Positions 5,539-22,801 of a DNA stretch of 64,000 bases are shown here, piece by piece. The notes under the pieces were generated by a model. The model was given only the letters and a program-made list of their open reading frames with translations. It searched no databases and had not been told where the DNA came from. This DNA comes from a virus. Position 1 is the stretch's first letter. The number at the start of each line of letters is the position of its first letter. The stretch is from the IMG/VR virus record IMGVR_UViG_3300046517_001864, positions 3,880-67,879 of that record. One strand, 5' to 3'. A program made the translations under genes and the position numbers.

Positions 5539-5772
5539 AAGCATACACAACACCTTTGCGGGTGGGGGCGATAGTACACCCGCGTAGTCTAAACGTGCCA
5601 CACCGTAGCCTGTAGGATCGGTGTGCCTGTCACAAGCCAGGAACAAACGCGAGTGGACACTGGTATAGGTATCAGTGGTGGAAACAGGTGTGTACATGCC
5701 TGTATGCCACAACCTGTGGGGGTACACGTGACTCCACAGCTCGACATCCGAAACGAGGGAAAGGAGTGTAGC

Positions 5773-6909: not shown

Positions 6910-6945
6910 CCACGACTTTTCCTCGTTGCTCCCTCCAAACCTCAA

Positions 6946-6987
6946 CCCCGTTAGGACCGCGTAGGCGGCTGACGGGGATTTTTTCAT
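6946..6987 (+). terminator. rho-independent terminator candidate
   Basis: GC-rich hairpin(s) (CCCCG...CGGGG with inner CCGC-GTAG-GCGG) followed by ATTTTTTCATTT. Confidence 0.5.
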
Positions 6988-7002
6988 TTAACGAGCAAAG
7001 CT

Positions 7003-7233
7003 ATGTCACACCGTAACCGCGAGGCATCACATATGGAGAAGATCGAACAGCAGAAGGTAACAGTTGTTCGGGAATCGGGAATCACTCCTCTGGTTGGCAC
7101 TCAGATGCCTACCGAACACGTTCATGTGGATAACTTGAATCAACACGCCGTGGCTCTCGGGCTAGCAGGTTGGGATGAACTATGTGTGGGGTGTGGGTAT
7201 CCGAACGATTGGTGCAGGTGTTTTGGCGGTTAG
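7003..7233 (+). CDS. hypothetical protein (76 aa)
   Basis: ORF in early block. Confidence 0.45.
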   Translation: MSHRNREASHMEKIEQQKVTVVRESGITPLVGTQMPTEHVHVDNLNQHAVALGLAGWDELCVGCGYPNDWCRCFGG

Positions 7234-7426
7234 GCGATGAACGTCAGTAAACGTACCCTGTCCCTCGCCGCGTTAGCATGTTGGTGCGTGTGGGCGATGG
7301 ATGTGAAGGATTTGGAGTTGTCGATTCGGATCATGTTCGTGCTGTGGTTGACGGATAAGTGGTGGAAGGAGTGATTCATGGACGACCTCGCTGCCCGTTG
7401 GCCCGAACTCGTAGCAGTGCTGGAGA

Positions 7427-7693
7427 ATGGTGATGCTTATTACCGCCTCAGTAGTAGCGTTGTTCCATCTCATCCGAGTGCGAGAAGGGTTCTTCCGAGA
7501 AGGAAGTCTTCCGCAAAGGCTGCACAATCCGTGCGCTCTGGTGTACGCAGGACAACCCGGCGCTCTACCCGCAGATCGAGGGTTCGCGTGGTTCGTGGCA
7601 GATGAAGATGGGGCGATGGCCTGTGCGAGGGATCTGACGAAGAAGATCGAACAACACCGCTCGTTACGACGTGCATGGGGGTACTTGAGATGA
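7427..7693 (+). CDS. hypothetical protein (88 aa); preferred over overlapping 7378..7605 Arg/Ser-rich frame
   Basis: Globular composition; stop overlaps next ATG (ATGA at 7690..7693). Confidence 0.4.
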   Translation: MVMLITASVVALFHLIRVREGFFREGSLPQRLHNPCALVYAGQPGALPADRGFAWFVADEDGAMACARDLTKKIEQHRSLRRAWGYLR

Positions 7694-7923
7694 AACGAGT
7701 ATATACTGATCTTAACTCGCCTTGGTCTACTGTAGCCGCTGAGGAAGTGCTCTCCCCGGAACAAGCGCGAGCCGAGCATGAGAAATGCGGTTGGAAAGAT
7801 CAGGAGGGATACATTCCTGTTGAGCTAGCAACTCGTCTTGAAGCTGCGTGGAATGTGCTTCAAACCATCTCAGAGGAAGTTGATAGATTTCGTACTGAAA
7901 CAGGTCAAGGAGATGGAAGATGA
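7690..7923 (+). CDS. hypothetical protein (77 aa)
   Basis: ATGA coupling on both sides. Confidence 0.4.
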   Translation: MKRVYTDLNSPWSTVAAEEVLSPEQARAEHEKCGWKDQEGYIPVELATRLEAAWNVLQTISEEVDRFRTETGQGDGR

Positions 7924-8050
7924 AACTCCGAGCAATCTGGGCTTGGCTCTGGGCGGATGATCCGCTTCGGCACTCGCGACAACAGGCCATGCGGGCGTTA
8001 CTTGCGAAAGCCGAATACGAATGTCATCCAAGATGGATAAGGTATAAGAA

Positions 8051-8404
8051 ATGAAATTCGAAGCCCCAACTAACGAAGGTATGACCGCTGCGTTTGCAGC
8101 GTCAACAGCAACGCTTACGGTCGATGCAGCAAAGGAATGTCATCCGATGATGTTCCACGAAGCGTTGTTGAGATTGTACAACGGTACGGTGGTGTCGATT
8201 AATCACGACAACAAACCTCCGGAACTCCAATGGCGATACGCGTTGATTCTCGCGTTTCGTGCGGGGTGGTATCTGCGGGAGTTACAGGACGGTACGCCGG
8301 TTACACCGAACGGTGTGGATCTTTCGGTGTTGTTCGGGGTGAATGAATCCGAGCTCGAATCGATTTTTCAGCAAATCAAACAAGAAGGAGAACAACAGAT
8401 ATGA
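8051..8404 (+). CDS. hypothetical protein (117 aa)
   Basis: ATGA-coupled ORF. Confidence 0.5.
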   Translation: MKFEAPTNEGMTAAFAASTATLTVDAAKECHPMMFHEALLRLYNGTVVSINHDNKPPELQWRYALILAFRAGWYLRELQDGTPVTPNGVDLSVLFGVNESELESIFQQIKQEGEQQI

Positions 8405-8598
8405 TGCGTAAGGATCAAGTGGAAGCGGTACTCGCGGATCTCGCGGAGCAAGAGCGTGTGCTCGTGGATCGGATTGATTCGACCACAAGTTCGCTCGTGC
8501 GGGTGCGGGGGAATATCGCTGGACTTCGGGAGAAGTACGCAAAGGTACTCGCCGTGGATGCTCCGTCCGTCGTGGTCGAAGCCCAAGCGGTTTCGTAA
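8401..8598 (+). CDS. small coiled-coil protein (65 aa)
   Basis: ATGA overlap with upstream gene. Confidence 0.4.
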   Translation: MMRKDQVEAVLADLAEQERVLVDRIDSTTSSLVRVRGNIAGLREKYAKVLAVDAPSVVVEAQAVS

Positions 8599-8604
8599 TC
8601 GGTC

Positions 8605-8796
8605 ATGACCGAAGCACAACAAACCGAACTAGTCGCGATGGTCGAAGGTGTTGTGGCGGGTCGGCTGGTGGATCATCGCAAGTGGCAGATGGCTCGGCGA
8701 GCTACGCCAATCTCTCGTGAGGTGATCAAACGGATCTCTCACAACGTCAGCAGGTACCTCGCTGGGGAGTTGAAACAGGAGTTTTCGAAAGGATAA
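8605..8796 (+). CDS. hypothetical protein (63 aa)
   Basis: ORF in early block. Confidence 0.4.
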   Translation: MTEAQQTELVAMVEGVVAGRLVDHRKWQMARRATPISREVIKRISHNVSRYLAGELKQEFSKG

Positions 8797-8799
8797 CAC

Positions 8800-9381
8800 A
8801 TGGCAACCTGTCGTCCGGAAGTACTCGCGGAGTTTATGGATTCGTATCTCCCGAAGTTGGAGAAGATCCTCGACGTACCGGTGAAGTGGTTTTTATACCA
8901 AGCCCCCGGCGCTGACGCTCTCAGCCCACGGTTAGGAGAAGGTGGGACGTGGTACCTCGTTGAGAAAAACTCACGGCCTGTTCCGAACACGCCATCACCC
9001 TCGTACTTCGCGTCGTTCATGATCGAACAACTTCGGGGATGTTGCGGAGTATGCGTCAGCACCGGTGCTCACGTTCGGGCGGAGTACACCCGCCAGGGCA
9101 TCGGCACGATGTTAAACGAGATGCGGCTCGGAATGGCAAAACGTCTCGGGTACGGGGTGATGCTCTGCACAACTGTGATGGATAACATCGGGGAGGGAAA
9201 AATCCTCGCCACGAATGGATGGCGGGAGATGTACACGTTCGTTAACCCTCGAACCAGTCGGAAGCTGGGGGTTTTCCTTCGCACCCTCCACGACATTCCG
9301 ATGGATGGTCCAGTGTTTGCAAAAGGTGCGCCAGCCGCACGAGCGACGAAGAGTTCGTTGTTGAAAGCGGGGAAGCTGTGA
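8800..9381 (+). CDS. GNAT-fold-like protein, paralog A (GCCG motif)
   Basis: 'RGCCGVCV', 'QGIGTMLNEM', 'NGWREMYTFVNPRTS' are colinear with 'PGCCGINV', 'KGIGTLFMEL', 'LNFTQVCTVVNPNTS' of 12228..12821; the (Q/R)xGIG segment resembles the GNAT acetyl-CoA motif A. Confidence 0.45.
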   Translation: MATCRPEVLAEFMDSYLPKLEKILDVPVKWFLYQAPGADALSPRLGEGGTWYLVEKNSRPVPNTPSPSYFASFMIEQLRGCCGVCVSTGAHVRAEYTRQGIGTMLNEMRLGMAKRLGYGVMLCTTVMDNIGEGKILATNGWREMYTFVNPRTSRKLGVFLRTLHDIPMDGPVFAKGAPAARATKSSLLKAGKL

Positions 9382-9526
9382 TCCGAATCTGCTCATCCGG
9401 GCATGTTACCGGGTACAAACGCTGCCCACGCTGTGGGGCAACCTCACAACCCGAGCGGGTGCGAGCATCCGAGCTGAAGCTCAAACCCGGTCAGACCATC
9501 AAACACCTGAGGAGTATCGGGAAGAT

Positions 9527-9934
9527 ATGAAATCCATCCGATCATTCATTCTCGCGGGGCTTCTGTCGTTCGGGGCTCTCGCACAAACCGGACCGGGAAC
9601 GTTGTTCTTCTTTGGCACCCACCACTACGCGGATCAGGTGCTCGAACCGTACCCGATCGGTGGGCTATCGAATTGGTACATTGTTCGAGCTCCAACCGCC
9701 GCCGCGTACGAGACGTTTGAAAACCTCCTCGACGTCCACAGCATCACTGTGATCAAAAACGGTGTGGTGCTCACGGCGCAGGGAAATAATCCGGATTATG
9801 GATTTTTCGTTCTTTCCAGTTTCACAAAATCATCCCAAGTAGTGGTGATTCTCGCAGCGCCAGTGCTTCCCACGGATCGGCTCCGAGTAAGTTTCGACTA
9901 CATCCAACAGGCTGCGCCGTGTGTGGTGTGTTAA
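9527..9934 (+). CDS. secreted protein (135 aa) with N-terminal signal peptide
   Basis: MKSIRSFILAGLLSFGALAQTG signal-like N-terminus. Confidence 0.5.
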   Translation: MKSIRSFILAGLLSFGALAQTGPGTLFFFGTHHYADQVLEPYPIGGLSNWYIVRAPTAAAYETFENLLDVHSITVIKNGVVLTAQGNNPDYGFFVLSSFTKSSQVVVILAAPVLPTDRLRVSFDYIQQAAPCVVC

Positions 9935-10181
9935 GGAAGATATGATCGGTTTAAAACGAGCGTTACGTATTGCAAAGGAAAAAGAAGGATACGAACAATG
10001 TTTTCGAAAAGATCATGGGCTTGGGTCGCCTTGTACATATGACGGTAAAACAGCTCCAGCGGGGTTTATTATCTGCCCAATTGTTCAGTTCTACCCAAAA
10101 CCAACGTACATGTTCCACTCAGTGAAAGATTTTCTTAAAAGTTCTGATATAGCCTATCGTAAAAAAGGCTGGATCAAATGA
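9921..10181 (+). CDS. hypothetical protein (86 aa)
   Basis: ORF in early block, overlaps upstream stop. Confidence 0.35.
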   Translation: MWCVKEDMIGLKRALRIAKEKEGYEQCFRKDHGLGSPCTYDGKTAPAGFIICPIVQFYPKPTYMFHSVKDFLKSSDIAYRKKGWIK

Positions 10182-10219
10182 TGTTCGTGAAGTACAAATC
10201 AAACTAGGAGAAATAACCA

Positions 10220-10597
10220 ATGCCAGCTCGCCAATGTCCCGAATCGACAACGATCACCGTCGCGCAAGCGTACGGACGTTCGATGTTGCAACTATCCACT
10301 CAGCTCAAACGCAACCAGCAGTTCATCGACTTCGCCATTCCCTCCGGTGCTGTGAAGTTCCTCGCCAAAGACGGCACCATCAAAACCCACAGCCCGAGTT
10401 CCAACTACGTCTTCGGTGGCCCCCGATTGATCGTCGGCGAACGCACCGTGGGACGCGTGACTTTCACTCCCACCGGTCGTGTGGCCGTGCCGACCAACGG
10501 ACAGCCGTACCTCAACGATGATGGCGGGATCTCGTACGGCACTCGTGGCATGACGGATGAATATCCGATCATGACCATGACCACGTCAGCGGCGTAA
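10220..10597 (+). CDS. hypothetical protein (125 aa)
   Basis: SD AGGAGAAATAACCAATG. Confidence 0.5.
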   Translation: MPARQCPESTTITVAQAYGRSMLQLSTQLKRNQQFIDFAIPSGAVKFLAKDGTIKTHSPSSNYVFGGPRLIVGERTVGRVTFTPTGRVAVPTNGQPYLNDDGGISYGTRGMTDEYPIMTMTTSAA

Positions 10598-10875
10598 ACA
10601 TCGGTACTCACCGAAAGGCGGCTATGCGCCGTTAAACACTCTCGCCCCGAAAGGTCGTAACTGGCCTAACGGGGCTTGTGGTGTTTTATGCTAAGCAAGT
10701 TACAGGAGATCTCCCGACGGTTGGAACTCATGCGAGTACGAGCGGCACATCTCATTAGCGTAACCGATCAGGACACAGCAGCAAATGCTCGAATTCGTTT
10801 GGAAGTGATGGATGAGGTTTTGAAAGAGTTTTGGAAAATCGTTGAACGATAGACGTAGGAATATAAAGGAGACAT

Positions 10876-12231
10876 ATGCCGCAGATTGAAATCCTCCAGG
10901 TTCGACCTGGAAATGTCGTGAGCTTTCTCGCCGAACCGCATTTGGTGCTTCAGCGGTTTAGCTACATGAACATCCATACGTTACTTCTCTTGAACAAAAA
11001 AGGCGAGGTAACGGAGCTTCGGGATTCGCAACTCAGTAAAACCGTTCCGACGGTGATGGAAAAGCTCGAAGACGCCGCAGCCTCAGAATGGCGAGAGAGT
11101 ATCGTCGGGAGCAAAACCGTTTTTGAAAAAGGTCACATGACCACCGGCGGCGGGTCGTGGATGCACATCGGAACTGATCCGGAGATTTTCGCGATGGATC
11201 GAAACGACCATGTGATTCCAGCGTTTGCGTATCTCCCTTCGAAACCCACCCCGAATCCGAACGGGCCACCCATTCCTGCGATATTCTTCGACGGGTTCCA
11301 AGCCGAATGGACAACAAATCCTTCCTCATGTCTCGGGCATCAAACGGATTATGTTCGGCAGGGGATGCAAGGTGTGCTCAACGCCGCACGGAAAATCGAT
11401 CCACAAGCAAAACTCTCACATCTGTCGGTAACCGACATCACATTCGATCCGACGCTACCCCCGGAGCGTTACCAGCTTGGATGCTCACCCTCAATGAACG
11501 CGTACGACGAACCCTCCGTGTTGATGGGGACGCCGGAGCTCCTTCCGTTTCGTTCAGCAGGATGGCATATGCATTTTCGAGGAACTACACCGCCGGTGAA
11601 TGCGGGTGATCCAGTGGATGGTTTCCATAGTGTTGATTCGAAAGAACTTGCCGCGAAGATCATCCAACTCGAAGATGCGATTCTTGGCACGGCATTGGTG
11701 AGTTTCGGCCAACATCACGTCGACCCCCGACGGAGGTTGATGTATGGTCGTGCGGGTGAATACCGGTTGGGGAAGACGCTCGAATACCGAGTGCCAGAGG
11801 TACTGATGGGATGCCATCCCGCCACGTGGAATCTGTTTTGGGACTTAGGCCGTGCGGTGTATTGGCTTGGGATGAGAGGGTTCAACTTCATCTGGGATGC
11901 CGATCCAACCGAGGTTCGAGAGGCGATCAACAACTCGAACGTGGCGTTAGCGCAGAAGATCCTTACGAAGAATATCCAGGTCCTGAATAGTATCTTCAAG
12001 TACCTCTACCGTGTGGGGCCGCTCAAGCCGACACCGGACTGGGCTCCGGATAAGATGGCTGTGAAAGCGATCCTCGAAGGTGCGAACGCGGTGTTGAACG
12101 ATCCAACAGCGGTGAGCAGGAATTGGCGGTTGGAGTCTGGCCAAACCTGGCAGAATGAAAGCCAAGGGCATCTCACCGGAACAAACTGGCGGACGTCTGT
12201 ACCAATGCTCCAAAGAGGAGAGAAACTATGA
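10876..12231 (+). CDS. large protein of unknown function (451 aa), flanked by the two GNAT-like paralogs
   Basis: SD AAGGAGACATATG; stop overlaps next gene (ATGA); no family recognised by eye. Confidence 0.6.
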   Translation: MPQIEILQVRPGNVVSFLAEPHLVLQRFSYMNIHTLLLLNKKGEVTELRDSQLSKTVPTVMEKLEDAAASEWRESIVGSKTVFEKGHMTTGGGSWMHIGTDPEIFAMDRNDHVIPAFAYLPSKPTPNPNGPPIPAIFFDGFQAEWTTNPSSCLGHQTDYVRQGMQGVLNAARKIDPQAKLSHLSVTDITFDPTLPPERYQLGCSPSMNAYDEPSVLMGTPELLPFRSAGWHMHFRGTTPPVNAGDPVDGFHSVDSKELAAKIIQLEDAILGTALVSFGQHHVDPRRRLMYGRAGEYRLGKTLEYRVPEVLMGCHPATWNLFWDLGRAVYWLGMRGFNFIWDADPTEVREAINNSNVALAQKILTKNIQVLNSIFKYLYRVGPLKPTPDWAPDKMAVKAILEGANAVLNDPTAVSRNWRLESGQTWQNESQGHLTGTNWRTSVPMLQRGEKL

Positions 12232-12821
12232 GCATACCCGCTCGGTTAGCAAACCTAATCAAACTCGATCCGTGGAAAACTCGGATTGAGAAACTCGAAC
12301 TCAGTGATATTCGTTTCGAAGGTGCATCGATTGCATCAAACTCGGATATTACTATTAAATTCCGGTATCAAAAGTGTGATCCGGTCATCACGGGTGTGAT
12401 TCCCGTCGGATGGTTTCCGGGATGCTGCGGGATTAACGTAATCCACCACATCAATTTTCCGTCGTGGGTGAAGTACGAAATCGACCCGGTGAAACGAGTT
12501 CCAATCGGACGAAAAGGAATCGGGACGTTGTTCATGGAGCTGGTGCTCGAAGCTTACAAGCAAGCTGGGCGAGAACGCACCGGGCCGGGGTTGTTACTCG
12601 CGGCCACAACGGGGTTCCAACGATCTGGGATAAAGATTCTCGAAAAGCTGAACTTCACCCAGGTTTGTACGGTCGTCAACCCTAACACCTCTCAAGAGGT
12701 AACGTTGTGGTATTACAAAACCTCGAAGTTCAAAACAGAGGCGGATATCAAACTCATGGAGAAAAGGAAAAAAGCTAAAGCAAAGCCGAAACCAAAGGCT
12801 AAACCGAAACCGAAACATTAA
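12228..12821 (+). CDS. GNAT-fold-like protein, paralog B, with C-terminal Lys/Ala/Pro repeat tail (KAKAKPKPKAKPKPKH)
   Basis: See paralog A; translationally coupled to the 451-aa gene. Confidence 0.5.
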   Translation: MSIPARLANLIKLDPWKTRIEKLELSDIRFEGASIASNSDITIKFRYQKCDPVITGVIPVGWFPGCCGINVIHHINFPSWVKYEIDPVKRVPIGRKGIGTLFMELVLEAYKQAGRERTGPGLLLAATTGFQRSGIKILEKLNFTQVCTVVNPNTSQEVTLWYYKTSKFKTEADIKLMEKRKKAKAKPKPKAKPKPKH

Positions 12822-13392
12822 CTTCTCATCGCCGCCCGTCGGGGTTACAACATAACCTGCTGCGGCATACTAACGGGATTAAAGCCATACCCAATGGCGA
12901 TGTGAAAATCCTCTACATGAATAACACGTCTAGATAACAGGATCTACCACGGATGACTCTTGCCTCTCCGATGTTTGTACGTCTCGAAGGAGAGTGCTCG
13001 ACACACGATGGTCTAGTGGGATCGAGTATTCGTAACCTCCATTGCAGGGCCGCTGAAGCCCTCGAAGGGTGTTACCGTAGCTCACTTAAGCCCACACGGC
13101 TCCTCAAGCCGTCATAAAGACCCTGGAGGCAAAAACGGAAAGAGCTCGGGAACCTATCCATCCGCGTGGGGTGGAGCAGAAACTCGCATCGGGCCGTGTA
13201 GAGGTGCCAAGGATCGTATTTGAAGTACAAGTTTACCAAGTAGCTGGCGCTGAGCTACCTAAGAATCTCCATATCTCATCGTGGCCGACGTTAGGTTCGT
13301 CAAAAGGCCGTGGAGGGGAACCGCTCCCACGGCATCGATCATGTTATGGAGAGATCTTAGATCGGGTTGGAGACGTAATTCCCGTGAGGTAA

Positions 13393-13439
13393 TTCATTTT
13401 GTGGGGAGTGTAGACTGGGTCAGGCGGGTTCGATTCCCG
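13393..13439 (+). ncRNA. tRNA-like minihelix (acceptor stem plus T-arm only) / truncated tRNA remnant
   Basis: GGGGAGT...CGGGTTCGATTCCCG...ACTCCCC: 7-bp acceptor-like stem with canonical T-arm (GGTTCGATTCC) but only 47 nt and no anticodon arm; sits in an 0.85-kb ORF-poor gap. Confidence 0.3.
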
Positions 13440-13764
13440 TGAACTCCCCTTCAAGTTTTCCACCCTTCGTTTGGTTAACACCTATGACGAATGGGGTACG
13501 CCGATTACCGGCGAGCTAAAGCACCGTTGGAGGCTAGGAAGCATGTTTATGTTGTAGAAGTTAGGACAGGTGCTAATCGGCGTCGCTTCGGCTTCGCCAT
13601 TAATATTAGCGTTATAACCTGCTGACAGAGTTTCTCACGGCATAACATACGGAAGGTCCGAGCGGAGGGTGGGAATAATAACCTATGAAAAACGAACTAA
13701 TCACAATCGGATGGATCGCGACGGGGATATTTATGCTTTGGGTAGCGTTTGCTCGGTGAGTGTT

Positions 13765-13944
13765 ATGGAATACCATTCATTATGTGATCACTGCGGGGAT
13801 CTGTTGATCGAAGATCATCGTCCCGCGCCGGGAGAATCGGTACATTGTTCTAGCTGTGGGATTACGTTCCCGCATGGACTTCGGGATTCCCATTGGCGGG
13901 AATGGTCTGATCCCTCCAAACCCGATTGGGCAGGTTGCGCGTGA
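13765..13944 (+). CDS. small zinc-ribbon protein (59 aa; CDHC...CSSC)
   Basis: Internal ATG of ORF-track 13669..13944; two CxxC pairs. Confidence 0.3.
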   Translation: MEYHSLCDHCGDLLIEDHRPAPGESVHCSSCGITFPHGLRDSHWREWSDPSKPDWAGCA

Positions 13945-14092
13945 ATGGTCTATGGGAGTTTTTCTTCTGCCCCGCTCACGGTGTGTTGCGATTCGTGGAC
14001 GGCGCTCATCTAACCTACGCTTGGGTATGGGTGCGTCATTCGAGCTACTACGTCCAGGCGTGGTTGTTATCACGTAAGGAGATTGTAAAATA

Positions 14093-14854
14093 ATGTACGC
14101 GTCTTACATTCCCGACAAAGGTACGATAGTCATGTACCCGGATTACAACTCCGCGATGGCGGATCGATTCCCGTATGAAGAAGTTGATTCCGACGCGTAT
14201 AACAAACTCATCCCAACGTTAGAATCAAACAGTCGGGTTTGTTTGACGTGTAGACGCGCTCGACTCGAACACTTCCGGGATCGATGTCGAACAATCGCGG
14301 ATTATGTAACAGGAGGACTTCCAACCGGCCATCCGATTGTTCGTCCACTTGTGGATATCATCATCTGTTCGTGTGGGGTCTCCGTAAATCGGGTGAAGAT
14401 CAACGGGAAAACTCGGTGCTACAAAGCCACCCGAGAGGAAATTCGTCGTTCGATCACAGGGAGATTAGCCACTACCCTGGCGAACGTACCTCAACCGAAT
14501 TGGACACTTGAGGCCCCAGGTCGATTCGCGCCAGACGTGTTACCTCGGCCAAGAGCTGGACGGACTCCGAGAACCGATCGGGATAATCTTGTCTTCAACG
14601 CAAGAATCGAGACAGATAACCTCACCCCACTTCAACAACGGGTTCGTCAGCTTACAGAAGCTATCATCGATCGTGATCGTCCAATGTTTCAGTGGGATCC
14701 GATGGTACGTCCGACAGCACCTCAACCGGAACCAGCCGAACCAAGAGTAACCGATCCGCCTCGTGTAGCGGATAACCAATTCACGGCTCTCCGACTAGAT
14801 GAGACAACCTTCGAACGGGTGGATGATGACATTCAACGAGAGGAGGAAGATTAA
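14093..14854 (+). CDS. hypothetical protein (253 aa), first gene of amidoligase cluster
   Basis: SD AAGGAGATTGTAAAATAATG; acidic C-terminus. Confidence 0.55.
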   Translation: MYASYIPDKGTIVMYPDYNSAMADRFPYEEVDSDAYNKLIPTLESNSRVCLTCRRARLEHFRDRCRTIADYVTGGLPTGHPIVRPLVDIIICSCGVSVNRVKINGKTRCYKATREEIRRSITGRLATTLANVPQPNWTLEAPGRFAPDVLPRPRAGRTPRTDRDNLVFNARIETDNLTPLQQRVRQLTEAIIDRDRPMFQWDPMVRPTAPQPEPAEPRVTDPPRVADNQFTALRLDETTFERVDDDIQREEED

Positions 14855-14857
14855 CCC

Positions 14858-15559
14858 ATGATTCACGGACGTTTTCACGGCGTAACAATCGTCAAACTCT
14901 CGCGAGCTGAGGGGGTGGAGATGCTAGCTTACCTCGGTTGGACTCGGATGATGTATGAAAAACTCATCCGACCGAAAGCTACGACCGAAAGTCCAACGGT
15001 CAAGCGACTACTTTCCTCTGTGCATGGGATTGAAACATGTATTCGAATGTACATACCTGGCGGTGGGTGGACCCCCGTAGATGCGCTGTACCATGAACGG
15101 TTAAACCAAAACAACCTCCTCCAACCAGGAGCAGCGGATGAAGGGTTATCGATTCTGTTAGGTTTTTCCGAAGAATTCATTCGGTCCATTAGCTCATACC
15201 CGAATCTATTCTCCGCTCCAACCGTCACCCGATTGTGTAAATCCGTTGATCGAAGGTTTCCGATCCGGGAATACCACCCCAAATCCGCTACGCTCGAACA
15301 ACGAACTCATTCCATCGAGTTAGTTGTACAACTATTCCAAATCCTCTCTGGGAATAACTCCGGAGAACTTTCCGGCGCGAATGATCGACAGTTGTTGTAC
15401 AACCAATCAACCGGGTTGGTGGAGATGTTGCGGATCTCCCACGATTTGAAGAACATCATCGCAAAGATCGATCATTGGACCGAAGTACTTGGTGCAGAAC
15501 GTCATGTATCGAAAGAGTTTGTTACAAAGACATTAAACACAAGGAGTATTTGTGGTTAA
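14858..15559 (+). CDS. hypothetical protein (233 aa)
   Basis: Tightly packed between 14093 gene and amidoligase (overlaps amidoligase start by 8 nt). Confidence 0.55.
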   Translation: MIHGRFHGVTIVKLSRAEGVEMLAYLGWTRMMYEKLIRPKATTESPTVKRLLSSVHGIETCIRMYIPGGGWTPVDALYHERLNQNNLLQPGAADEGLSILLGFSEEFIRSISSYPNLFSAPTVTRLCKSVDRRFPIREYHPKSATLEQRTHSIELVVQLFQILSGNNSGELSGANDRQLLYNQSTGLVEMLRISHDLKNIIAKIDHWTEVLGAERHVSKEFVTKTLNTRSICG

Positions 15560-16757
15560 CAAGGAAAAATTCTGCGTCAACTGCCTTCGTCGGGCTCGGG
15601 ATACGGAAAAAGCTTTAAAAACCGTCCACTCCCATCCGCTACGGCTCCCGAAGGAACACTGCGCGATCTGCCATCGATGCTCTTCTTGCCGGTGTATCTG
15701 TGTCATCTGCACGAAGTGTAAAGCACGTGTTGCAATGGCCCCAACGAAGTACTGCTCGCACTGTCGGATGTGTAAGAAGTGCGACTCATGCAGGAAAATG
15801 CCGCACTACCTTTCCACCGATCGGTGGGTGGGGACGCGGACATCTTCGCTCATCAACCCGTTGAATCGTACGCTTGGGTTGGAACTTGAGATTGCAAACT
15901 GGGGTACGTTGGAGAACTACCTCATGAACTACGCTCACTACGACCGAGCGCATGATTGGTCGGTGAAGCCATCTGAATCAGAGATGGTCCTCCAACCGTT
16001 AAAAGGGGATTACTTCCTCAAAGCGATGATGGAGTTGGCCGTAACCCTTGCAAAATCAAAAGCTTCGGTGAATGAAACCTGTGCGTTACACGTACACGTC
16101 GGAGGAACGGAGTTGTCATACTGGGAACTTCGACGTCTCCTGCGGGTATACGCGAAGCTTGAGCAAGAGATATACGATTATCTCATTTTACCACATCGGA
16201 GGGACACTCCGACGGTAGTTCACTACTGTCAGATGATGACTAAGCCTCACATCCATTGTGATCGATGTGATCGGTACGATCAACAGTATCCCCGAACCCG
16301 TCGGGTGCTGGAGGATCTCCACACTACGGTAGCTCGAATGGACCGGGCGCAGACCACCACAGATCTCAAAGCATGTTTTTTGAAGATGCTGTATAACATC
16401 CCCCGACCTTCGGAGAAGTATTCGAAAGAGCATCTTCCATCTCGGCTCCAAACCCTCCAAACCCACAAAGGCGGGAGATACGAATGGTGCCGGTACGTTG
16501 GGCTCAACCTCCACGCGTGGCAGTATCGTGGTACGGTCGAATGGCGAATGAAAGAAGCCACTACCCAGCTTGACGAGCTGATCTGCTGGCCGTTGTGGTG
16601 TGGGTGGTTTGTGGAAACCATCACCAAAATGACCGAGAAAGACTCCACCCGTTGGTGGACGTTGATCGAATTCACCGAGCGGTACATGCCAAAGTATCTC
16701 ACTGCATGGGTGAGTAATAAAGTTTCGCAAAGAAAGGTAGGACCGACGTTGTCATGA
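15552..16757 (+). CDS. amidoligase of the GCS2/YbdK (glutamine synthetase-like) fold with N-terminal multi-Cys zinc-ribbon region
   Basis: 'TLGLELEIAN' (G-x-E-x-E start motif) and 'ALHVHVG' (HVHVG motif) typical of gamma-glutamyl-cysteine-ligase-2-type amidoligases; N-terminal CxxC x6 cluster. Confidence 0.55.
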   Translation: MVNKEKFCVNCLRRARDTEKALKTVHSHPLRLPKEHCAICHRCSSCRCICVICTKCKARVAMAPTKYCSHCRMCKKCDSCRKMPHYLSTDRWVGTRTSSLINPLNRTLGLELEIANWGTLENYLMNYAHYDRAHDWSVKPSESEMVLQPLKGDYFLKAMMELAVTLAKSKASVNETCALHVHVGGTELSYWELRRLLRVYAKLEQEIYDYLILPHRRDTPTVVHYCQMMTKPHIHCDRCDRYDQQYPRTRRVLEDLHTTVARMDRAQTTTDLKACFLKMLYNIPRPSEKYSKEHLPSRLQTLQTHKGGRYEWCRYVGLNLHAWQYRGTVEWRMKEATTQLDELICWPLWCGWFVETITKMTEKDSTRWWTLIEFTERYMPKYLTAWVSNKVSQRKVGPTLS

Positions 16758-16948
16758 GTAAACTTTGGACTCCAAAGGACTACTGGCGTAAGGAAATCAT
16801 CGACGTCGCACTGAAAGAGATCGATCGAAACCAGGCGATTGTCTACTATCATCGAATGGACTGTCCACATCCGGAGTTTGTTCCGAAAGGAAACTTCTCG
16901 TCAGTCTGTGCGGTCTGTGGAAGAAATAAGGAGTTTATTAAATCATGA
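16754..16948 (+). CDS. small Cys/His protein (64 aa)
   Basis: ATGA overlaps on both sides; CPHPEF...CAVCGRNK. Confidence 0.4.
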   Translation: MSKLWTPKDYWRKEIIDVALKEIDRNQAIVYYHRMDCPHPEFVPKGNFSSVCAVCGRNKEFIKS

Positions 16949-17157
16949 AAACCCAATTCTGTTCCTTTTGTGGGAAAGACACGCTCCACAACCCATTGAA
17001 GAAAACCCCAAAAGGTGAACAGTTCTACCGTTGTGTGGTATGCGGGAACCCCCGCCGGTACAATGGAAAGAACTTTGCAATAGCTCTTGCGCCGGGTTCG
17101 AGAGCTGTGAACCTTCCCTACCCGATCCCACCGAAAGGTGCGTTGGGGGCATCATGA
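16945..17157 (+). CDS. zinc-ribbon protein (70 aa; CSFCGK...CVVCGNP)
   Basis: Two CxxC pairs; ATGA coupling. Confidence 0.45.
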   Translation: MKTQFCSFCGKDTLHNPLKKTPKGEQFYRCVVCGNPRRYNGKNFAIALAPGSRAVNLPYPIPPKGALGAS

Positions 17158-17447
17158 TGTTTGGATACAAACAAGGAGAAATCGTTGAAACCGATACCGG
17201 ACCTCACTTTGTGGTCCAAAATTCTTGCTACGGAAACATTGGCTTCGCATCGCTCAACCCCGTGGAAGGTCCGCCGACGAAAACGCAGCAGGAGTACCGG
17301 GACTATCACGCCGAGCAGAAGCGACGAGCGGAAGCCAAAGCCGCTGCGCTCCGGGAACGAATCCGTAATCGAATAGAACCCGATCTATCCGAAGAAAAAT
17401 TAATCGACCTTATCGTGGACCTTATCCACGAAGAAAGCGAGTACTAA
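17154..17447 (+). CDS. hypothetical protein (97 aa; ORF-track start 17031 likely too far upstream)
   Basis: ATG at 17154 overlaps upstream stop (ATGA); helical Glu/Arg-rich C-terminus. Confidence 0.4.
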   Translation: MMFGYKQGEIVETDTGPHFVVQNSCYGNIGFASLNPVEGPPTKTQQEYRDYHAEQKRRAEAKAAALRERIRNRIEPDLSEEKLIDLIVDLIHEESEY

Positions 17448-17450
17448 CTC

Positions 17451-18482
17451 ATGTGTGGAATATTCGGCTTTAGCCGTGTAACGGATGTGACCAAACAGAT
17501 GGCCATTCCGTTGATGTGGGAGATGGAGGATCGAGGACGGGACTCTTGGGGCTGCTCCAACGGAATCGAATGGATCAAACAGATCGGTCCGATCACCAAA
17601 ACGTGGCGGAAATACGAATCCGAATGGCACCAGTGGGAACGAGCAATCTTTCACACCCGTGCTGCTTCGCAGGGGAAGGTCTCCATCGAAAACCAACACC
17701 CGTTCCGTATTGACCATACGGAAGAGGATCAATCCGTCCGCACCCTCGTCGGAATCCACAACGGTGTCGTCTCCAATCATGACCAACTTAACGCCAAGTA
17801 CAAACGGGATTTTGATTGTGATACCCCGCATATCTACATGGCCCTCGCGGGGTTCTCTCCTACTCAGGAGATTCACGGGTATGGTAACCTGGCGTGGTAT
17901 GATTACTCGACCACAAACCCGACTCCAATCCTGCACTTCCTCCACTTTAACGCAGGGAACCTGAACGTCGCGAAGCTCGAATCTGGTGAGATGGTGTTCT
18001 GTTCCACGAAAGATCCCATCGATCGTGCTGCGGATTTCGCAGGAACCAAAATCGATCGGTACTTTCACCTGGAAGGGGATAAGATTTACTGGGTGGAACT
18101 GAACTACCAGGATGTCCCAGGATCGGACATGCTCATCGCTGGGCCGAAGCAATCCTTCGGCGGGAGGTCGATTCAAGGAACTGGTTGCGCTACTCCTTGG
18201 GATGGGCACCGTCCAGTTGGGTTACCCTTGTACGAGCACATCGCCGGAGCGAATCCCCGCAGGATGGGTCCTTCCCAAGTCCGGAACACGAATATATCCG
18301 AACTTGGCTCAGAGGATCGACAGAACAACATCTGCCTTAACAATCAATGCAAGAACAAAGTGAAACAATCTCGGCGGAAACAGCTCCTCTGTGAGACCTG
18401 CCTCGTAGCGGTAAAACAAAACCTCGCTTACATGACCACAATTCATGATCGGGTTCGTGGCCGAATGGGAGGTGCTGAATGA
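17451..18482 (+). CDS. class-II (Ntn) glutamine amidotransferase domain protein with C-terminal Cys cluster
   Basis: N-terminus MCGIFGF (catalytic Cys2 as in PurF/AsnB/GlmS); C-terminal CLNNQC...CETC. Confidence 0.65.
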   Translation: MCGIFGFSRVTDVTKQMAIPLMWEMEDRGRDSWGCSNGIEWIKQIGPITKTWRKYESEWHQWERAIFHTRAASQGKVSIENQHPFRIDHTEEDQSVRTLVGIHNGVVSNHDQLNAKYKRDFDCDTPHIYMALAGFSPTQEIHGYGNLAWYDYSTTNPTPILHFLHFNAGNLNVAKLESGEMVFCSTKDPIDRAADFAGTKIDRYFHLEGDKIYWVELNYQDVPGSDMLIAGPKQSFGGRSIQGTGCATPWDGHRPVGLPLYEHIAGANPRRMGPSQVRNTNISELGSEDRQNNICLNNQCKNKVKQSRRKQLLCETCLVAVKQNLAYMTTIHDRVRGRMGGAE

Positions 18483-18808
18483 ATGCAGGAAGACCTACCG
18501 GCTCGGTTGCGACGCCGGGTCGCATTCTTCGAAAGAGCCTCCAGGACTCGGCGAGGCTTGCTTCGCGTACGAGAAAATTACTTGAAGGGCGATTAGTAGC
18601 GATTGAGAAACGTCTCGCGGATGATCTAATTGGGGAGAACACTGACGGGTTGGTGGATCAGCTTCTAAAGATCATGTCCGCTCTCGACCGGACTGTCGAA
18701 CAAACCGGGCGGTTGCTAACGCAGAAACATACTCCGGTGGAAACCACCGAATCCGCCTCACCGACTGATATCATGCACGAACTTACGAAAGGAAAGAAAC
18801 CAAAATGA
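18479..18808 (+). CDS. hypothetical protein (109 aa)
   Basis: ATGA-coupled to GATase gene. Confidence 0.45.
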   Translation: MNAGRPTGSVATPGRILRKSLQDSARLASRTRKLLEGRLVAIEKRLADDLIGENTDGLVDQLLKIMSALDRTVEQTGRLLTQKHTPVETTESASPTDIMHELTKGKKPK

Positions 18809-19302
18809 GTACGGTTTACGAATACGCAACGGGACAGTTTCACATTCACGTGAAACTTGCGGGAGAGTTGGACAAGATCGAACTTTTCCACGCGATCATC
18901 GAAAAGATCGACGGGTCTTGGCCTTGGGGTCCTTCGAAAGGTAACCACGGCACGGTTCGGGTTTGTAGGAAGTGCAAGGGATTCCTTCTATCCAACCCCC
19001 GCTTCGCGCCACAGGATCTCAAAGCCGCAGGCGAACAGGCCGGGATTCATATCAAAATCTACGGTTATTCCCCTCAGCTCAACTGTTTCGAAGGAACCGA
19101 ATACCAGCACACCGAATCCATCGACCGTGTGGCCTGCCGTGCTCTCTACGGACACAAACCGAAACGGATCACGGTGCTGGGTGGGAAGCTTTGGATCGGG
19201 GATTCTACCCCAACAACCGGCCCTCGGTTGATCGAAGCTGTGGATCGAAAGGTCATTGAACTTCCTTCGGTCGCTCCGAAGGACAGCCAGTTGGTGAACT
19301 GA
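18805..19302 (+). CDS. hypothetical protein (165 aa)
   Basis: ATGA-coupled. Confidence 0.5.
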   Translation: MSTVYEYATGQFHIHVKLAGELDKIELFHAIIEKIDGSWPWGPSKGNHGTVRVCRKCKGFLLSNPRFAPQDLKAAGEQAGIHIKIYGYSPQLNCFEGTEYQHTESIDRVACRALYGHKPKRITVLGGKLWIGDSTPTTGPRLIEAVDRKVIELPSVAPKDSQLVN

Positions 19303-19471
19303 GATGTTCCACAAACAATTCTATCGCGGTCTCGACGGTCACTGGTATCTCCGAGGGTTATTCCACATCCTCCTTTGGCGGTCACCAGGACGAACTAAAC
19401 CAGGGAGCTTTGTTGGGTTATGCGGGAACTTATCGCCGGAGTAATCCTCCTCGAACTACTTCTCGCGCCGG

Positions 19472-20320
19472 TTGAACATTGGTTACATAGGAGAATATAT
19501 GGGAATACACGTCATCGGGCCGCAGGACTGGGAAACAGTCATTGCTTTAAATGACATGCTTCGGCATGTCCCGGAGGAAGGGACGTTCAAGCTGGGCGGA
19601 CGTCATTTCGAAGCGCAGGGGCAGTTCAAACGGTTTGACAAAGCCGGGGTCCCGACCGTCGAGTGGACCACGAATCTCACTACAGCGAAAGGATGGGTCC
19701 GAAACGGAGCAGCGGTGCTTGGACGAGACCGGTACCATTCTCGGGGGGAGGATATTGTTCTAGTATCCCACACTGCTGATATCACAGACGCTTGGGAAAG
19801 TAAGTCCGTCTGGACCAAGTTTGTCCCCTCCCAAGCCGAATGGCGATTCCATATCGTTAACGGGCAGTCCATCTCCCGGGATCTGAAGGTCTTCAACCGA
19901 CCCGGGCAGGGGCGAGGGTCCCTCGCGAGCATTAGAGCCCGCGCATGGGATTGGTCGGCCCGACATGATGTTGAGCCCCCAGCCGAGGCTCGCCGAGCTG
20001 CTGTAGCGGCTGTGGACGCGTTGGAGGGGTATACCCACGGTGCGGTCGACCTGCTTATCGACATGGAGTTCCGTCCAGTCGTGCTTGAAGTCAACCGCTG
20101 TCCGGGGATGGATGCCTACACCCGTGAGCGGTGGTGTAACGCGATTCGAAAGTTTGTACGATCTCACGGGCGGGGTAACGCGTCCGCTGAAACAGCAGCG
20201 GCCCGTCCACCAGTTCCAGCTTGGGTTCATCGACCCTCGACGGTCATGGCTCGGACCGAAACCGGGCGAATTTCGTCCCGGTCGAGAGAGGAATTCTACG
20301 AAGGCGTTGAGGTTGTATAA
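19472..20320 (+). CDS. ATP-grasp fold protein (candidate amide ligase)
   Basis: 'GAVDLLIDMEFRPVVLEVNRCPGMD' matches the ATP-grasp 'D...ExN..PG' C-terminal motif; alternative start at 19499 (SD AGGAGAA). Confidence 0.45.
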   Translation: MNIGYIGEYMGIHVIGPQDWETVIALNDMLRHVPEEGTFKLGGRHFEAQGQFKRFDKAGVPTVEWTTNLTTAKGWVRNGAAVLGRDRYHSRGEDIVLVSHTADITDAWESKSVWTKFVPSQAEWRFHIVNGQSISRDLKVFNRPGQGRGSLASIRARAWDWSARHDVEPPAEARRAAVAAVDALEGYTHGAVDLLIDMEFRPVVLEVNRCPGMDAYTRERWCNAIRKFVRSHGRGNASAETAAARPPVPAWVHRPSTVMARTETGRISSRSREEFYEGVEVV

Positions 20321-20336
20321 CTTACAAATGTCGGTT

Positions 20337-20446
20337 CCCCTGGGGCTGAGTATACTCCCTTGAATCTTTTCAATATTTTATATACTCCTAAGACGTTTAT
20401 ATTAAGATTTATTAAGAACAGTAAGAGAATATACTCCGCCCCAGGG
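20337..20446. repeat. 20-bp imperfect inverted repeat flanking a 67-bp AT-rich core; three copies of TATACTCC
   Basis: CCCTGGGGCTGAGTATACTC (20338..20357) versus rc of GAATATACTCCGCCCCAGGG (20427..20446), 18/20; a third TATACTCC at 20381..20388. Confidence 0.5.
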
Positions 20447-20466
20447 AGACCGAGACGGCCAAGTCG

Positions 20467-20844
20467 ATGAAAAGAGAGCACAAATCGGTTTCGGAGAATT
20501 TCCGTCGTCGAAATTCCCGGTTCGAAGCCCGACCGGGGCATCGGCAACGGCGAACGCCGAGGGTGTTTCAACCAAGGTTGTCGAATGAGCAGGTTCGAGA
20601 GTTGCTCGGTCCGGAAGCATTAAGAACTCTTAAGGAACTCGCTCAGGAGGAGATGAATGTGATTCGTCAGATGGAAGTATCAAAGTTCTGTGGAACATGT
20701 CATAGGATTCTTGTTGCGGAAGAGAACTTCCACAAGGACAACCACGAGCCAGATGGATGGTGCTGGGAGTGTAAGACCTGTGTACGAGCACGACGAACGG
20801 AACGACACCAACGAATTCACGACTTGATCTGGAGACGAGTATGA
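20467..20844 (+). CDS. zinc-finger protein (125 aa)
   Basis: CGTCHR...CWECKTC; basic N- and C-termini. Confidence 0.45.
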   Translation: MKREHKSVSENFRRRNSRFEARPGHRQRRTPRVFQPRLSNEQVRELLGPEALRTLKELAQEEMNVIRQMEVSKFCGTCHRILVAEENFHKDNHEPDGWCWECKTCVRARRTERHQRIHDLIWRRV

Positions 20845-21347
20845 TTTATTTATCCTCACCAATTTTCGAATCAACCGCTGATGGAGTAATCCTCCCGGTC
20901 TCCGGGACGGAGGATATCCCGGAAGGATCGTTGCATGAGAAGTTCCTTTCCGAGTTGGATCTCTCCTACTGTGAGCATTACTTCCGAGAGGTAAAATTGG
21001 ATTCGTGGGCGTTTACCCCCGCGACGTGTTCGTTTATCCGAGAAGGTGAGCCGTGGTATCACAAGTGGGTAGTAGAGATGCCATGTCTTCCGGAGGATCG
21101 GTTTCATACACTATCCCCTCGGGTACATCGAGCCGCGTATTTGGTGAATAAGCTCGGGTTGAAGACCGTAGCGGTTTCGCATTTGAATTGTAAGATCAGT
21201 CGGAACGCTCAGGAGATTCTCTGGCAATGGGTGGAAAACCAACTCGACGGAGTGGAGATACACCTTCACACGCAGGAGTATGACGATGCGGAGCAGCCAG
21301 CGATTGTTCTAGCAACGCAGGTGGATACGGTGGTGGGTTGTGCATAG
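20841..21347 (+). CDS. hypothetical protein (168 aa)
   Basis: ATGA-coupled ORF. Confidence 0.5.
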   Translation: MIYLSSPIFESTADGVILPVSGTEDIPEGSLHEKFLSELDLSYCEHYFREVKLDSWAFTPATCSFIREGEPWYHKWVVEMPCLPEDRFHTLSPRVHRAAYLVNKLGLKTVAVSHLNCKISRNAQEILWQWVENQLDGVEIHLHTQEYDDAEQPAIVLATQVDTVVGCA

Positions 21348-21476
21348 TTGTAAGGATCTAAAACAAGGAAAGTTCGAAGTGTATAACTACTGGCAGAACT
21401 TGTTTTATATCTATGACAAGTTGAGCCACGTGTACATCTTTGGAATTCGGTTCTGCCCGTTCTGTGGAGGAAAGTT

Positions 21477-21695
21477 ATGAAGTTCTTTTTTCACTACAAT
21501 AAACCTGCTTCGCAGCAGAAGGGATTCCCGGTGATCTCCCTCCACTACCAAGGCGCGTGTCATCTATGTCGGGCCCTTACCTGCGAGGTTCCCACCCAGA
21601 CCAAGTCCCGAGCGACCGCTCCAAAACTCGTGGTGGAAGGGCACGCGAATAAGATCTACTGGCGAAGTGAAGGTGGAACAGCGAGGATAGTATGA
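21477..21695 (+). CDS. hypothetical protein (72 aa)
   Basis: SD GGAGGAAAGTTATG; stop overlaps nuclease start. Confidence 0.4.
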   Translation: MKFFFHYNKPASQQKGFPVISLHYQGACHLCRALTCEVPTQTKSRATAPKLVVEGHANKIYWRSEGGTARIV

Positions 21696-22801
21696 TCATC
21701 GATTACTCACAGTACTCCCTCTGGAACTTCTGCCCGTGGGCGTGGTATGAACGTTACGTCAATCAGCGACAACTTCGCTACGAGGGTCAAAGGTCGGATG
21801 CTCTTGCTTTGGGTTCATTGGTTCATAACGGTTTGGATAATTTTGCGAAGTTCCACAAGCCGATAATCGATCAAGCGACGATGACGGAGATGAATCCCAC
21901 GCCGGAGTGTTACGCGATGGCGGTGTTGTTAATCGAAGGGTACATCAACCGGTACCCAGCGGAGCTGTGGCCGGTGGAGTTGACGGAGCAGCCGTTGAGG
22001 TTTCCGTTGCGCCCAACTGAAATCGGATGGGACGGTGAAAAGATCAAATACGAAGGAGTTCCGGAGTACAACGGTCTCGCGAAACTCGACGGATACTTCT
22101 ACGTTCCGGAGGACACCACAATCGAATCCGGATGCGGACCGAATATCACCCTTTCCCGGGGATGGTGGGGGAAGGAATACAAAACGAAGTCCTTCGGGCG
22201 TAAACGAGCGGAGTGGATCAAAGAATGGCAGACGAAGCGTCAAGCGGATTTTCAGATCCTTGCGTTAAAAAATCTCGTGAACAGCCGTGAGTTCTCGCCG
22301 AAGATAATACAACTCATGGAACAACACGGTAACTCTACTAGTGAAGTACAGGGCATTCTCGTATGTGTGTTAGAGAAACCCCACGAGTATGTTCCGAAAC
22401 GTAAGTGTGCCGGGTGTAAGGAAACGTGGGAGATGTCGAGTTTTATTCCTCAGTCGGAAGGATTCATGTGTCCTTCCTGTAACTGTGTGCAGGAGTTATC
22501 GCCGTACATCCCGAAGTCTCCAAAGGTACCCGAATACTTCCGTATCACTGTTACTCGCGACGCCCGGCAGTTAGAGATCGCAAAGCACGAGATCCTTCGC
22601 ACCGCTAACCGAATGGAAGCAGTACGGGCGAATGGTATGGAAGCCGAGATCCCTAACCGTGACGCTTGTGTAAACAACGTCCATCGTCGGGAGTGTGAGT
22701 ATCACGCCCCACATACGTACGGAGGGACCACGTCGGATGGAACGAAGTACGTTCAAATCGATTCGACGAAGTACATGGGGTTAGCAGAGGTGGGGGTATG
22801 A
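21692..22801 (+). CDS. PD-(D/E)XK nuclease of the Cas4/RecB exonuclease type with Cys cluster (candidate Fe-S)
   Basis: N-terminal 'YSQYSLWNFCPWAWYERY' (Cas4/RecB N-motif with Cys); C-terminal CAGC...CPSCNC. Confidence 0.5.
   Translation: MIIDYSQYSLWNFCPWAWYERYVNQRQLRYEGQRSDALALGSLVHNGLDNFAKFHKPIIDQATMTEMNPTPECYAMAVLLIEGYINRYPAELWPVELTEQPLRFPLRPTEIGWDGEKIKYEGVPEYNGLAKLDGYFYVPEDTTIESGCGPNITLSRGWWGKEYKTKSFGRKRAEWIKEWQTKRQADFQILALKNLVNSREFSPKIIQLMEQHGNSTSEVQGILVCVLEKPHEYVPKRKCAGCKETWEMSSFIPQSEGFMCPSCNCVQELSPYIPKSPKVPEYFRITVTRDARQLEIAKHEILRTANRMEAVRANGMEAEIPNRDACVNNVHRRECEYHAPHTYGGTTSDGTKYVQIDSTKYMGLAEVGV

Follow-up and report, generated by a model that had tools for sequence, protein, structure and literature searches.

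What do two genes that resemble no known family do directly in front of a phage amidoligase? The question is raised by a stretch of viral DNA of 64,000 nucleotides (positions 3,880 to 67,879 of the IMG/VR record IMGVR_UViG_3300046517_001864), which as a whole is called the window in the following. The window is a tailed-phage genome; its plus strand codes for a PolA with a UDG-like domain, a primase, a Sak4-like annealing protein and an exonuclease, its minus strand for a head–tail adaptor and a transglycosylase-bearing protein. The two genes, ORF A and ORF B, precede an amidoligase and a class-II glutamine amidotransferase (GATase). A sequence-only reading of the locus had proposed them as novel partner enzymes of the amidoligase, with base-activating steps of a DNA hypermodification cluster in mind. 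Here we find that A and B are real genes which constitute two previously undescribed protein families, that they form an invariant, translationally coupled module with the amidoligase, whose N-terminal domain is rich in cysteines, and with the GATase, and that this module lies in a peptide-ligase cassette of the phiEco32/LUZ24 type.

In the open reading frame list of the window ORF A (14093..14854, plus strand, 253 amino acids) and ORF B (14858..15559, plus strand, 233 amino acids) both start with ATG, and the amidoligase gene (15552..16757, 401 amino acids, GTG start) has the same orientation. An AAGGAG box is located 10 nt 5′ of the start of A, only 3 nt separate the TAA stop of A from the ATG of B, and the final 8 nt of B overlap the GTG of the amidoligase, which is preceded at a distance of 5 nt by an AAGGAG box of its own. 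The positions, the common orientation and the tight coupling noted in the sequence-only reading are thus borne out by the reading frames, the Amidoligase_2 match of the third gene, the gap, the overlap and the Shine–Dalgarno boxes. Ribosome binding sites, tight coupling, homologs with E values of about 1e-42 and ratios of nonsynonymous to synonymous substitution rates (dN/dS) of 0.17–0.37, as estimated by the method of Nei and Gojobori with dS near saturation, together establish A and B as genes. The start of A at 14093 is backed by an N-terminus that is conserved in the related protein P0002 and in locus L024 (related proteins and loci are cited by our P and L numbers) and by a conserved TAATG junction with a preceding small ORF; the JGI gene call P0001 starts A at Met14 instead. 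A promoter and terminator scan of 8500..21800 gave counts at or near the shuffled expectation and leaves the limits of the operon undefined.

Neither A nor B has a match with a meaningful E value in Pfam, PHROGs or NCBIfam, a relative among the PDB sequences or a match to GenBank phages by blastn or tblastn. The earlier statement that no family is recognisable therefore stands. When A, B or their profiles were searched against GenBank phages, IMG/VR, JGI metagenome contigs and GTDB, very few further loci were retrieved. No bacterial homologs were found in the GTDB genomes and metagenome contigs searched, and for this reason no host can be assigned. Both families are small and comprise about 12 contigs, which are mostly short and all metagenomic.

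ORF B belongs to a basic family of about 230 amino acids. It found no homolog in a word-indexed protein search and at this level resembled an orphan. When 1.84 billion representative proteins were scanned exhaustively with HMMER, P0004, P0005 and P0006 came up (E = 3e-42 to 5e-26); together with P0007 and P0009 these relatives are of equal length and range from E = 3e-42 to 2e-6 at 31–43% identity. A search with the B-family profile added P0010–P0014, and on the contig of P0002, a relative of A, the next gene is a B homolog starting MTYGRFHGVTVIRIS... The family shares the conserved blocks YLGWTxMM, PxxGW, GFSEEF, TLDRRxPxR and ERHLSxEFVxKxL, and dN/dS at the N-terminus of B is 0.37. Single sequence and family profile alike found nothing in Pfam, PHROGs, NCBIfam or the PDB sequences, and no signature of a kinase, a nucleotidyltransferase or another enzyme family was detected in any library searched. 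Matches of some members to FtsK_gamma, BRK and MerR_2 cover 13–33 residues in closely related sequences, and we regard them as motif coincidences; the FtsK_gamma match spans 19 residues below threshold and is the sole winged-helix-like signal. P0008 (1757 amino acids, E = 4e-8 against B) was rejected as well, as it is an Ig-like repeat protein which scores by summed repeats. An AlphaFold2 model of B from single-sequence input has a mean predicted local distance difference test score (pLDDT) of 36.

ORF A is composed of two parts. An identical copy is found on three short JGI contigs, and P0002 is 65% identical (E = 1.3e-42). The N-terminal part (14093..14467, residues 1–125) contains about 115 conserved residues, has an isoelectric point (pI) of 9.1 and carries the cysteine pairs C50-x2-C53 and C92-x-C94. 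In ten sequences from five lineages C50, C53 and C92 are invariant and C94 is present in at least 90%; C109 is kept in close relatives. From the arrangement of the cysteine pairs, and from sub-threshold Pfam matches of the family which nearly all fall on zinc-ribbon and zinc-finger families (best E between 0.0013 and 0.1), we infer that this domain is a zinc ribbon. A Ros zinc finger, encountered in the search of PDB sequences, was not significant (E = 0.21) and is not accepted as the identity of A. The C-terminal part (14468..14854, residues 126–253) is rich in proline and arginine and acidic, with a pI of 4.7, 13% proline, 77% disorder-promoting residues and the terminus DDDIQREEED; by its composition it is probably disordered. 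With a dN/dS of about 0.44, against 0.17 for the N-terminal domain, the tail is poorly conserved. Long-tailed variants, also with acidic ends, occur in L001 and L024 and have the anchor residues W201, F230, L233, E251 and E252 in common with A; in the three lineages the proteins end in ...REEED, ...EPEEVL and ...EPEGD. The majority of the family has 112–118 amino acids, lacks the tail and terminates in ...STSWGAL, ...LWSTL, ...MYFSS or ...VEGGL. The N-terminal domain of A aligns with those short proteins of 112–118 amino acids that are located upstream of B homologs (hhalign, P = 8e-4). Modelling of A by AlphaFold2 from a two-sequence alignment again gave a mean pLDDT of 36, too low for either model to be of use.

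We profiled all fetched loci with local hidden Markov models of the cassette components. Every contig that has a B homolog and sufficient flanking sequence (the window, L001, L013–L021 and L023–L026) shows the order A, B, Cys-rich amidoligase, class-II GATase. Further genes flank this module: upstream of it those for a COOH-NH2 ligase and for a GNAT-like protein of about 180–197 amino acids, downstream those for two small conserved proteins, p109 and p165, and for a RimK-like ATP-grasp ligase. As A and B are always situated directly 5′ of the amidoligase and the GATase, they very probably work with these two enzymes. It had been set out beforehand that a lack of conserved neighbourhood linkage would speak against a partnership; in fact the linkage is conserved, and a similar arrangement is seen in the more distant loci L005, L006 and L012.

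These distant loci deserve closer attention. In the IMG/VR phages L005, L006/L007 and L012 the amidoligases are 31–41% identical to that of the window, the position of A is taken by a protein of 99–113 amino acids with cysteine pairs and the position of B by a protein of 225–236 amino acids. BLASTP of the window proteins A and B against the L005 analogs gave no match, and the link is made via profiles and synteny only. Profile alignment with hhalign yielded P values of 8e-4, 0.004 and 0.02 for A and of 0.006 for B. In a local test database of 3,727 ORFs the best non-member matches of the A-family profile were the proteins at the A position in L005 and L006, a profile built from the B-position analogs ranked B-family members first among its non-self matches, and with the B profile the L005 analog came second among the non-self matches. 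It is therefore probable, as judged from profile comparison, that A and B are homologous to their positional counterparts in L005, L006 and L012. L006 and L012 further encode a second, Cys-poor amidoligase-like paralog elsewhere, and the analogs of A and B adjoin the Cys-rich one; the assignment of the paralogs is based on weak scores and on motifs judged by eye.

The cysteine-rich region is the N-terminal domain of the amidoligase (15552..15875, plus strand). It is very basic (pI 9.5 in the window) and contains 15 cysteines in about 100 residues, in runs of CxxC with the pattern C-x2-C … C-x2-C-x2-C-x2-C-x-C-x-C-x2-C-x2-C … C-x2-C-x2-C-x2-C-x2-C. All amidoligases behind A and B or their analogs begin with such a basic domain of about 85–105 residues and 7–19 cysteines, around 15 in most of them. 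The domain found no family match in the libraries searched; its cysteine pattern suggests that it may bind several zinc ions or Fe-S clusters. The catalytic core follows at 15876..16757 (PF12224, E = 2e-16, and PHROG families annotated as amidoligase enzyme). The class-II (Ntn, MCGIFG...) GATase at 17451..18482 on the plus strand (GATase_6, E = 2.6e-6, and PHROGs) ends in a basic zinc ribbon with cysteine pairs and is syntenic in all related loci. Further instances of the Cys-rich domain are located in L006 (9950..), L012 (7968..) and L016 (3613..).

A different arrangement is seen in L022 (MW202637.1), a GenBank phage, where an amidoligase of 684 amino acids (6041..8095) begins with about 190 residues that form a helical domain, continues with a Cys-rich region and the ligase core and is followed by a GATase; separate A and B genes are not present. 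We considered its N-terminal domain or its Cys-rich region as fused A and B in the sense of a Rosetta-stone protein and rejected this, as the profiles of A and B match neither of them. In function the N-terminal domain may nevertheless correspond to B as a fused counterpart.

A basic charge is common to the module. The pI is about 9–10 in the A domain of nine of ten sequences and 8.5–10 in all 14 members and analogs of B, and values of about 9–10 are retained in the amidoligase N-terminal domain and in the C-terminal zinc ribbon of the GATase; only 31% of the window proteins reach a pI of at least 8.9. A second common property, restricted to A and B, is fast divergence. Between the window and L013 the identity is 54% for the amidoligase, 46% for the GATase, 43% for p165 and 40% for the COOH-NH2 ligase, whereas B is 25% identical and A essentially undetectable. 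In comparison with L005, L006 and L012 the enzymes are 30–41% identical, and A and B are invisible to BLASTP. A and B thus diverge about twice as fast as the adjacent enzymes, and no other member of the cassette evolves as fast.

Such rates are typical of host-interaction proteins, and one could argue that A and B have nothing to do with the ligases: A would be a zinc-ribbon regulator, B a host-takeover or anti-defence protein, and their adjacency a consequence of shared gene order. All known carriers are relatives of one another whose early regions are broadly collinear, and the region is rich in small zinc-ribbon ORFs as is typical of phage early genes. Yet the adjacency persists when the amidoligases are only 31–41% identical and other neighbours turn over, in several lineages the stop of one gene overlaps or adjoins the start of the next from A through B to the amidoligase, and A and B track the Cys-rich amidoligase domain, specifically the Cys-rich paralog where two exist. 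We consider a function independent of the ligases unlikely.

The enzymes around A and B belong to a known type of cassette, which consists of a COOH-NH2 ligase (PF14395), an Amidoligase_2 enzyme (PF12224), a class-II GATase, a RimK-like ATP-grasp ligase and often a GGCT/AIG2 protein. This phiEco32/LUZ24-type amide-ligase cassette was reportedly described by comparative genomics by Iyer and colleagues in 2009. We know of no product or target of a COOH-NH2 ligase/amidoligase/GATase/ATP-grasp cassette in any phage since then. LUZ24-like phages carry the cassette (PMC3890496), and phages of OM43 have similar amidoligase–GATase pairs, for which cell-wall modification or secondary metabolism has been proposed. 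In LUZ24 it comprises gp16 (COOH-NH2 ligase), gp17, gp18 (amidoligase), gp19 (GATase), gp21 (RimK-like) and gp22 (GGCT). The window has its COOH-NH2 ligase of the phiEco32 type at 10876..12231 (plus strand; PHROG 3815, E = 4.5e-17, with a Pfam PF14395 match of only 0.097), followed by a GNAT-like protein of 197 amino acids with a weak GNAT match (12228..12821, plus strand), and its RimK-like ATP-grasp ligase at 19472..20320 (plus strand; PHROG 2599, E = 1.4e-22, and a weak Pfam ATP-grasp match), which is conserved in the related loci. The four enzyme families are therefore present in the identical order on the early strand, with a protein of about 190 amino acids after the COOH-NH2 ligase in both phages. 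Our local profiles recognise gp16 (4e-22), gp21 (4e-18) and gp18 (1e-8) at very low sequence identity.

There are also clear differences. LUZ24 has neither A nor B, and its gp18 begins at the catalytic core with no cysteine before it; the A and B profiles gave E values of at least 0.095 against gp15–gp23, and no PHROG family corresponds to A or B. Conversely, the GGCT protein of the LUZ24 type was not detected by Pfam among the ORFs scanned in the window. Since LUZ24 lacks all three and the analogs in L006 and L012 stand beside the Cys-rich paralog, A, B and the Cys-rich amidoligase domain appear to occur together. The existence of a core cassette without A and B in LUZ24 further implies that both are dispensable for the basic chemistry.

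With this gene set in hand we can return to the sequence-only reading, by which A and B are kinase- or pyrophosphorylase-type enzymes that activate a DNA base for the amidoligase, the cluster being a hypermodification pathway. What defines thymidine hypermodification clusters is a source of 5-hydroxymethyldeoxyuridine together with the kinase 5-HMUDK and aGPT-Pplase transferases; these clusters also hold pyridoxal phosphate-dependent, radical S-adenosylmethionine and other tailoring enzymes, with amidoligases and GATases as occasional companions in some viral contigs (PMC8989533). The likeness to the window lies in the amidoligase and GATase domains and in the location among early or middle phage genes. 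The basic character of A, B, the amidoligase N-terminal domain and the GATase C-terminus, three of which have zinc-ribbon-like cysteine pairs, would suit binding of nucleic acids, B has an invariant Arg-rich DRRxPxR, and the phage encodes a NUDIX hydrolase, a MazZ-like PF18909 protein and an HD protein. However, dUMP/dCMP hydroxymethylase, TET/JBP, 5-HMUDK and aGPT-Pplase were not found among the window ORFs of at least 120 amino acids or the called genes of L013. Eleven members of the B family and ten of the A family have no kinase or transferase match in Pfam even at E values of 5–10 and none in NCBIfam, and A and B match no kinase, nucleotidyltransferase or phosphoribosyltransferase family. 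Moreover, a zinc-ribbon-like domain of about 115 residues with a probably disordered tail does not look like the architecture of an enzyme, and a divergence far above that of the enzymes is not what one usually sees in catalysts whose step is obligatory. As the defining enzymes are undetected, the cassette is not a recognised thymidine-hypermodification cluster. The gene set fits the LUZ24-like peptide-ligase type; the premise of a hypermodification cluster is not supported, although some novel chemistry could still accommodate it, and a base-activating role of A and B is in our view very unlikely.

Upstream of the cassette L013 carries two ATP-grasp genes (RimK/R2K_3) and a Peptidase_M19 dipeptidase (4236..6603). 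This set of genes points to peptide or γ-glutamyl chemistry rather than nucleic-acid chemistry for the whole system.

We suggest the following for A and B, a proposal we regard as quite possible if still short of probable: both serve the Cys-rich amidoligase–GATase pair as subunits for targeting or assembly and are not catalytic themselves. The zinc-ribbon-like domain of A would dock, together with B, on the basic N-terminal domain with its roughly 15 cysteines. A and B would then keep the amidoligase–GATase pair at its substrate, a polyanionic macromolecule such as an acidic protein or a nucleic acid, or would control the access to it. Amidoligase and GATase would perform ATP-dependent amide-bond chemistry with glutamine as the source of nitrogen or of a γ-glutamyl group. 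In those lineages which have it, including the window, the acidic tail of A could be a flexible tether or else an auto-inhibitory or mimic element. That A and B diverge fast while the enzymes next to them evolve slowly is in keeping with specificity subunits which track a changing target.

Several points weigh against this proposal. The evidence for docking, gene adjacency and coupling, is indirect. The target in this proposal is hypothetical. A basic pI is frequent among phage proteins. The homology of A and B to the analogs in L005, L006 and L012 is only marginally significant. Within the HMMER-detectable B family T-L-D-R-R-x-P-x-R, E59 and D75 are invariant, and these residues may be catalytic or ligand-binding; with a model of such low pLDDT, B may have an enzyme fold.

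The acidic tail suggests yet another role for A, namely that it is a substrate or carrier of the ligases, with amino acids or peptides built on or within its C-terminal region and with B as a recognition or chaperone partner. LysW, which is small and combines a zinc ribbon with an acidic tail, is loaded by a RimK-family ATP-grasp enzyme. The pairs LysW/ArgW and LysX/ArgX thus resemble the window, in which a small zinc-ribbon protein, an acidic tail in long A and a RimK-like ATP-grasp enzyme are likewise united in one locus. A is translated directly ahead of the enzymes, and three further amide-forming enzymes are encoded there. Its conserved N-terminal domain followed by a hypervariable C-terminal part, with acidic ends in three lineages and with ATP-grasp and other ligases nearby, is also reminiscent of the graspetide-type precursors of ribosomally synthesised and post-translationally modified peptides.

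The resemblance does not extend to the details. LysW has a conserved C-terminal glutamate (...EDWGE), whereas the C-termini of A differ from lineage to lineage and no residue at or near the end is conserved across the family, and the short members of 112–118 residues have no acidic tail at all. A has no similarity to LysW, neither through the Pfam families matched by the A family nor to the NCBIfam model carrier_LysW. Its constant neighbour is the glutamine synthetase-like amidoligase and not the ATP-grasp ligase, which in L013 is about 5 kb away. In contrast to the precursor peptides, the conserved part of A is a Cys4 domain of about 115 residues and not a short leader, and many members lack the variable tail; B has no significant match to recognition-element or winged-helix Pfam families. 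In our opinion a carrier role of A is improbable, and we prefer to see A and B as accessory subunits of the amidoligase and GATase.

The same basic and cysteine-rich elements allow a more far-reaching idea, which we mention as a long shot: A, B, the 15-Cys domain of the amidoligase and the zinc ribbon of the GATase might together make up a platform which binds nucleic acids and steers the ATP-dependent amide ligase to DNA or RNA. If true, phages would have a novel way to hypermodify nucleic acids, for example by an amino acid or γ-glutamyl group on a base or a tRNA, which does without the logic of 5-hydroxymethyl-pyrimidine, kinase and pyrophosphorylase, with A and B as targeting subunits specific for a sequence or a structure.

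Directly in front of A the window encodes a conserved micro-ORF of about 50 amino acids (13941..14093, plus strand; ...LWEFFFCPAHG...AWLLSRKEIVK), whose TAA stop overlaps the ATG of A in the TAATG junction mentioned above. It is 54% identical over 50 residues to an ORF 5′ of the long-A gene in L024 (E = 1e-18) and is also present in L001. Its dN/dS is 0.13–0.31, and in the final 12 codons the differences between the window, L024 and L001 are all synonymous and in the third position. The micro-ORF is more conserved than A and probably belongs to the same operon as A and B. On L002, a contig identical to the window, the JGI gene call at this position is in a different frame. Just 5′ of the micro-ORF we observed an ORF for a zinc-ribbon protein of 91 amino acids (13669..13944, plus strand; CDHCG...CSSCG), which has a sub-threshold match to the NCBIfam LysW carrier (E = 0.17), probably a generic zinc-ribbon similarity.

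The remaining genes of the cassette are conserved to different degrees. Downstream of the GATase p109 (18479..18808, plus strand, about 109 amino acids) and p165 (18805..19302, plus strand, about 165 amino acids, with a CxxC pair) are as uncharacterised as A and B. The two genes directly follow the GATase in all related cassettes, among them those of L005, L006, L008, L012 and L013, with coordinates of 12353..13467 in L005, 10503..11662 in L012 and 12922..13700 in L013. On the other side COOH-NH2 ligase and GNAT-like protein precede A and B in L013, L016, L017, L021 and L025. The GNAT-like protein has a KPKPK-rich tail end and homologs in L013, L016 and L021. A paralog of about 195 amino acids is encoded at 8800..9381, also on the plus strand (29% identity, E = 4e-7), and the two share a GCCG...R(Q/K)GIGT motif and a weak GNAT match.

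Elsewhere in the window, near the PolA and primase genes, a NUDIX hydrolase is encoded at 29392..29853 on the plus strand. On the same strand 31878..32243 gives a strong match to PF18909 (E = 1e-29), the N-terminal domain of a MazZ-like dATP/dGTP diphosphohydrolase, and an HD-domain protein of 178 amino acids follows at 32212..32748. This set recalls the nucleotide-pool enzymes of the 2-aminoadenine (Z-genome) phages; the ORFs scanned gave no PurZ-like (adenylosuccinate synthetase) match. At the left end of the window (737..1935, minus strand) a PfkB-family carbohydrate kinase (E = 6.5e-13) and a cupin/mannose-6-phosphate-isomerase-like protein are encoded, genes of sugar metabolism that are unusual for such a phage. 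The window contains no tRNA genes.

In summary, A and B add two protein families beyond the current libraries. The cassette to which they belong is widespread in phages and found in LUZ24-like Pseudomonas phages, in phiEco32 and in marine OM43 phages. Its variant with two dedicated, co-translated and fast-evolving putative accessory proteins and a proposed metal-binding docking domain offers a handle on the substrate, and the binding partners of A and B should point to the substrate of the whole system.

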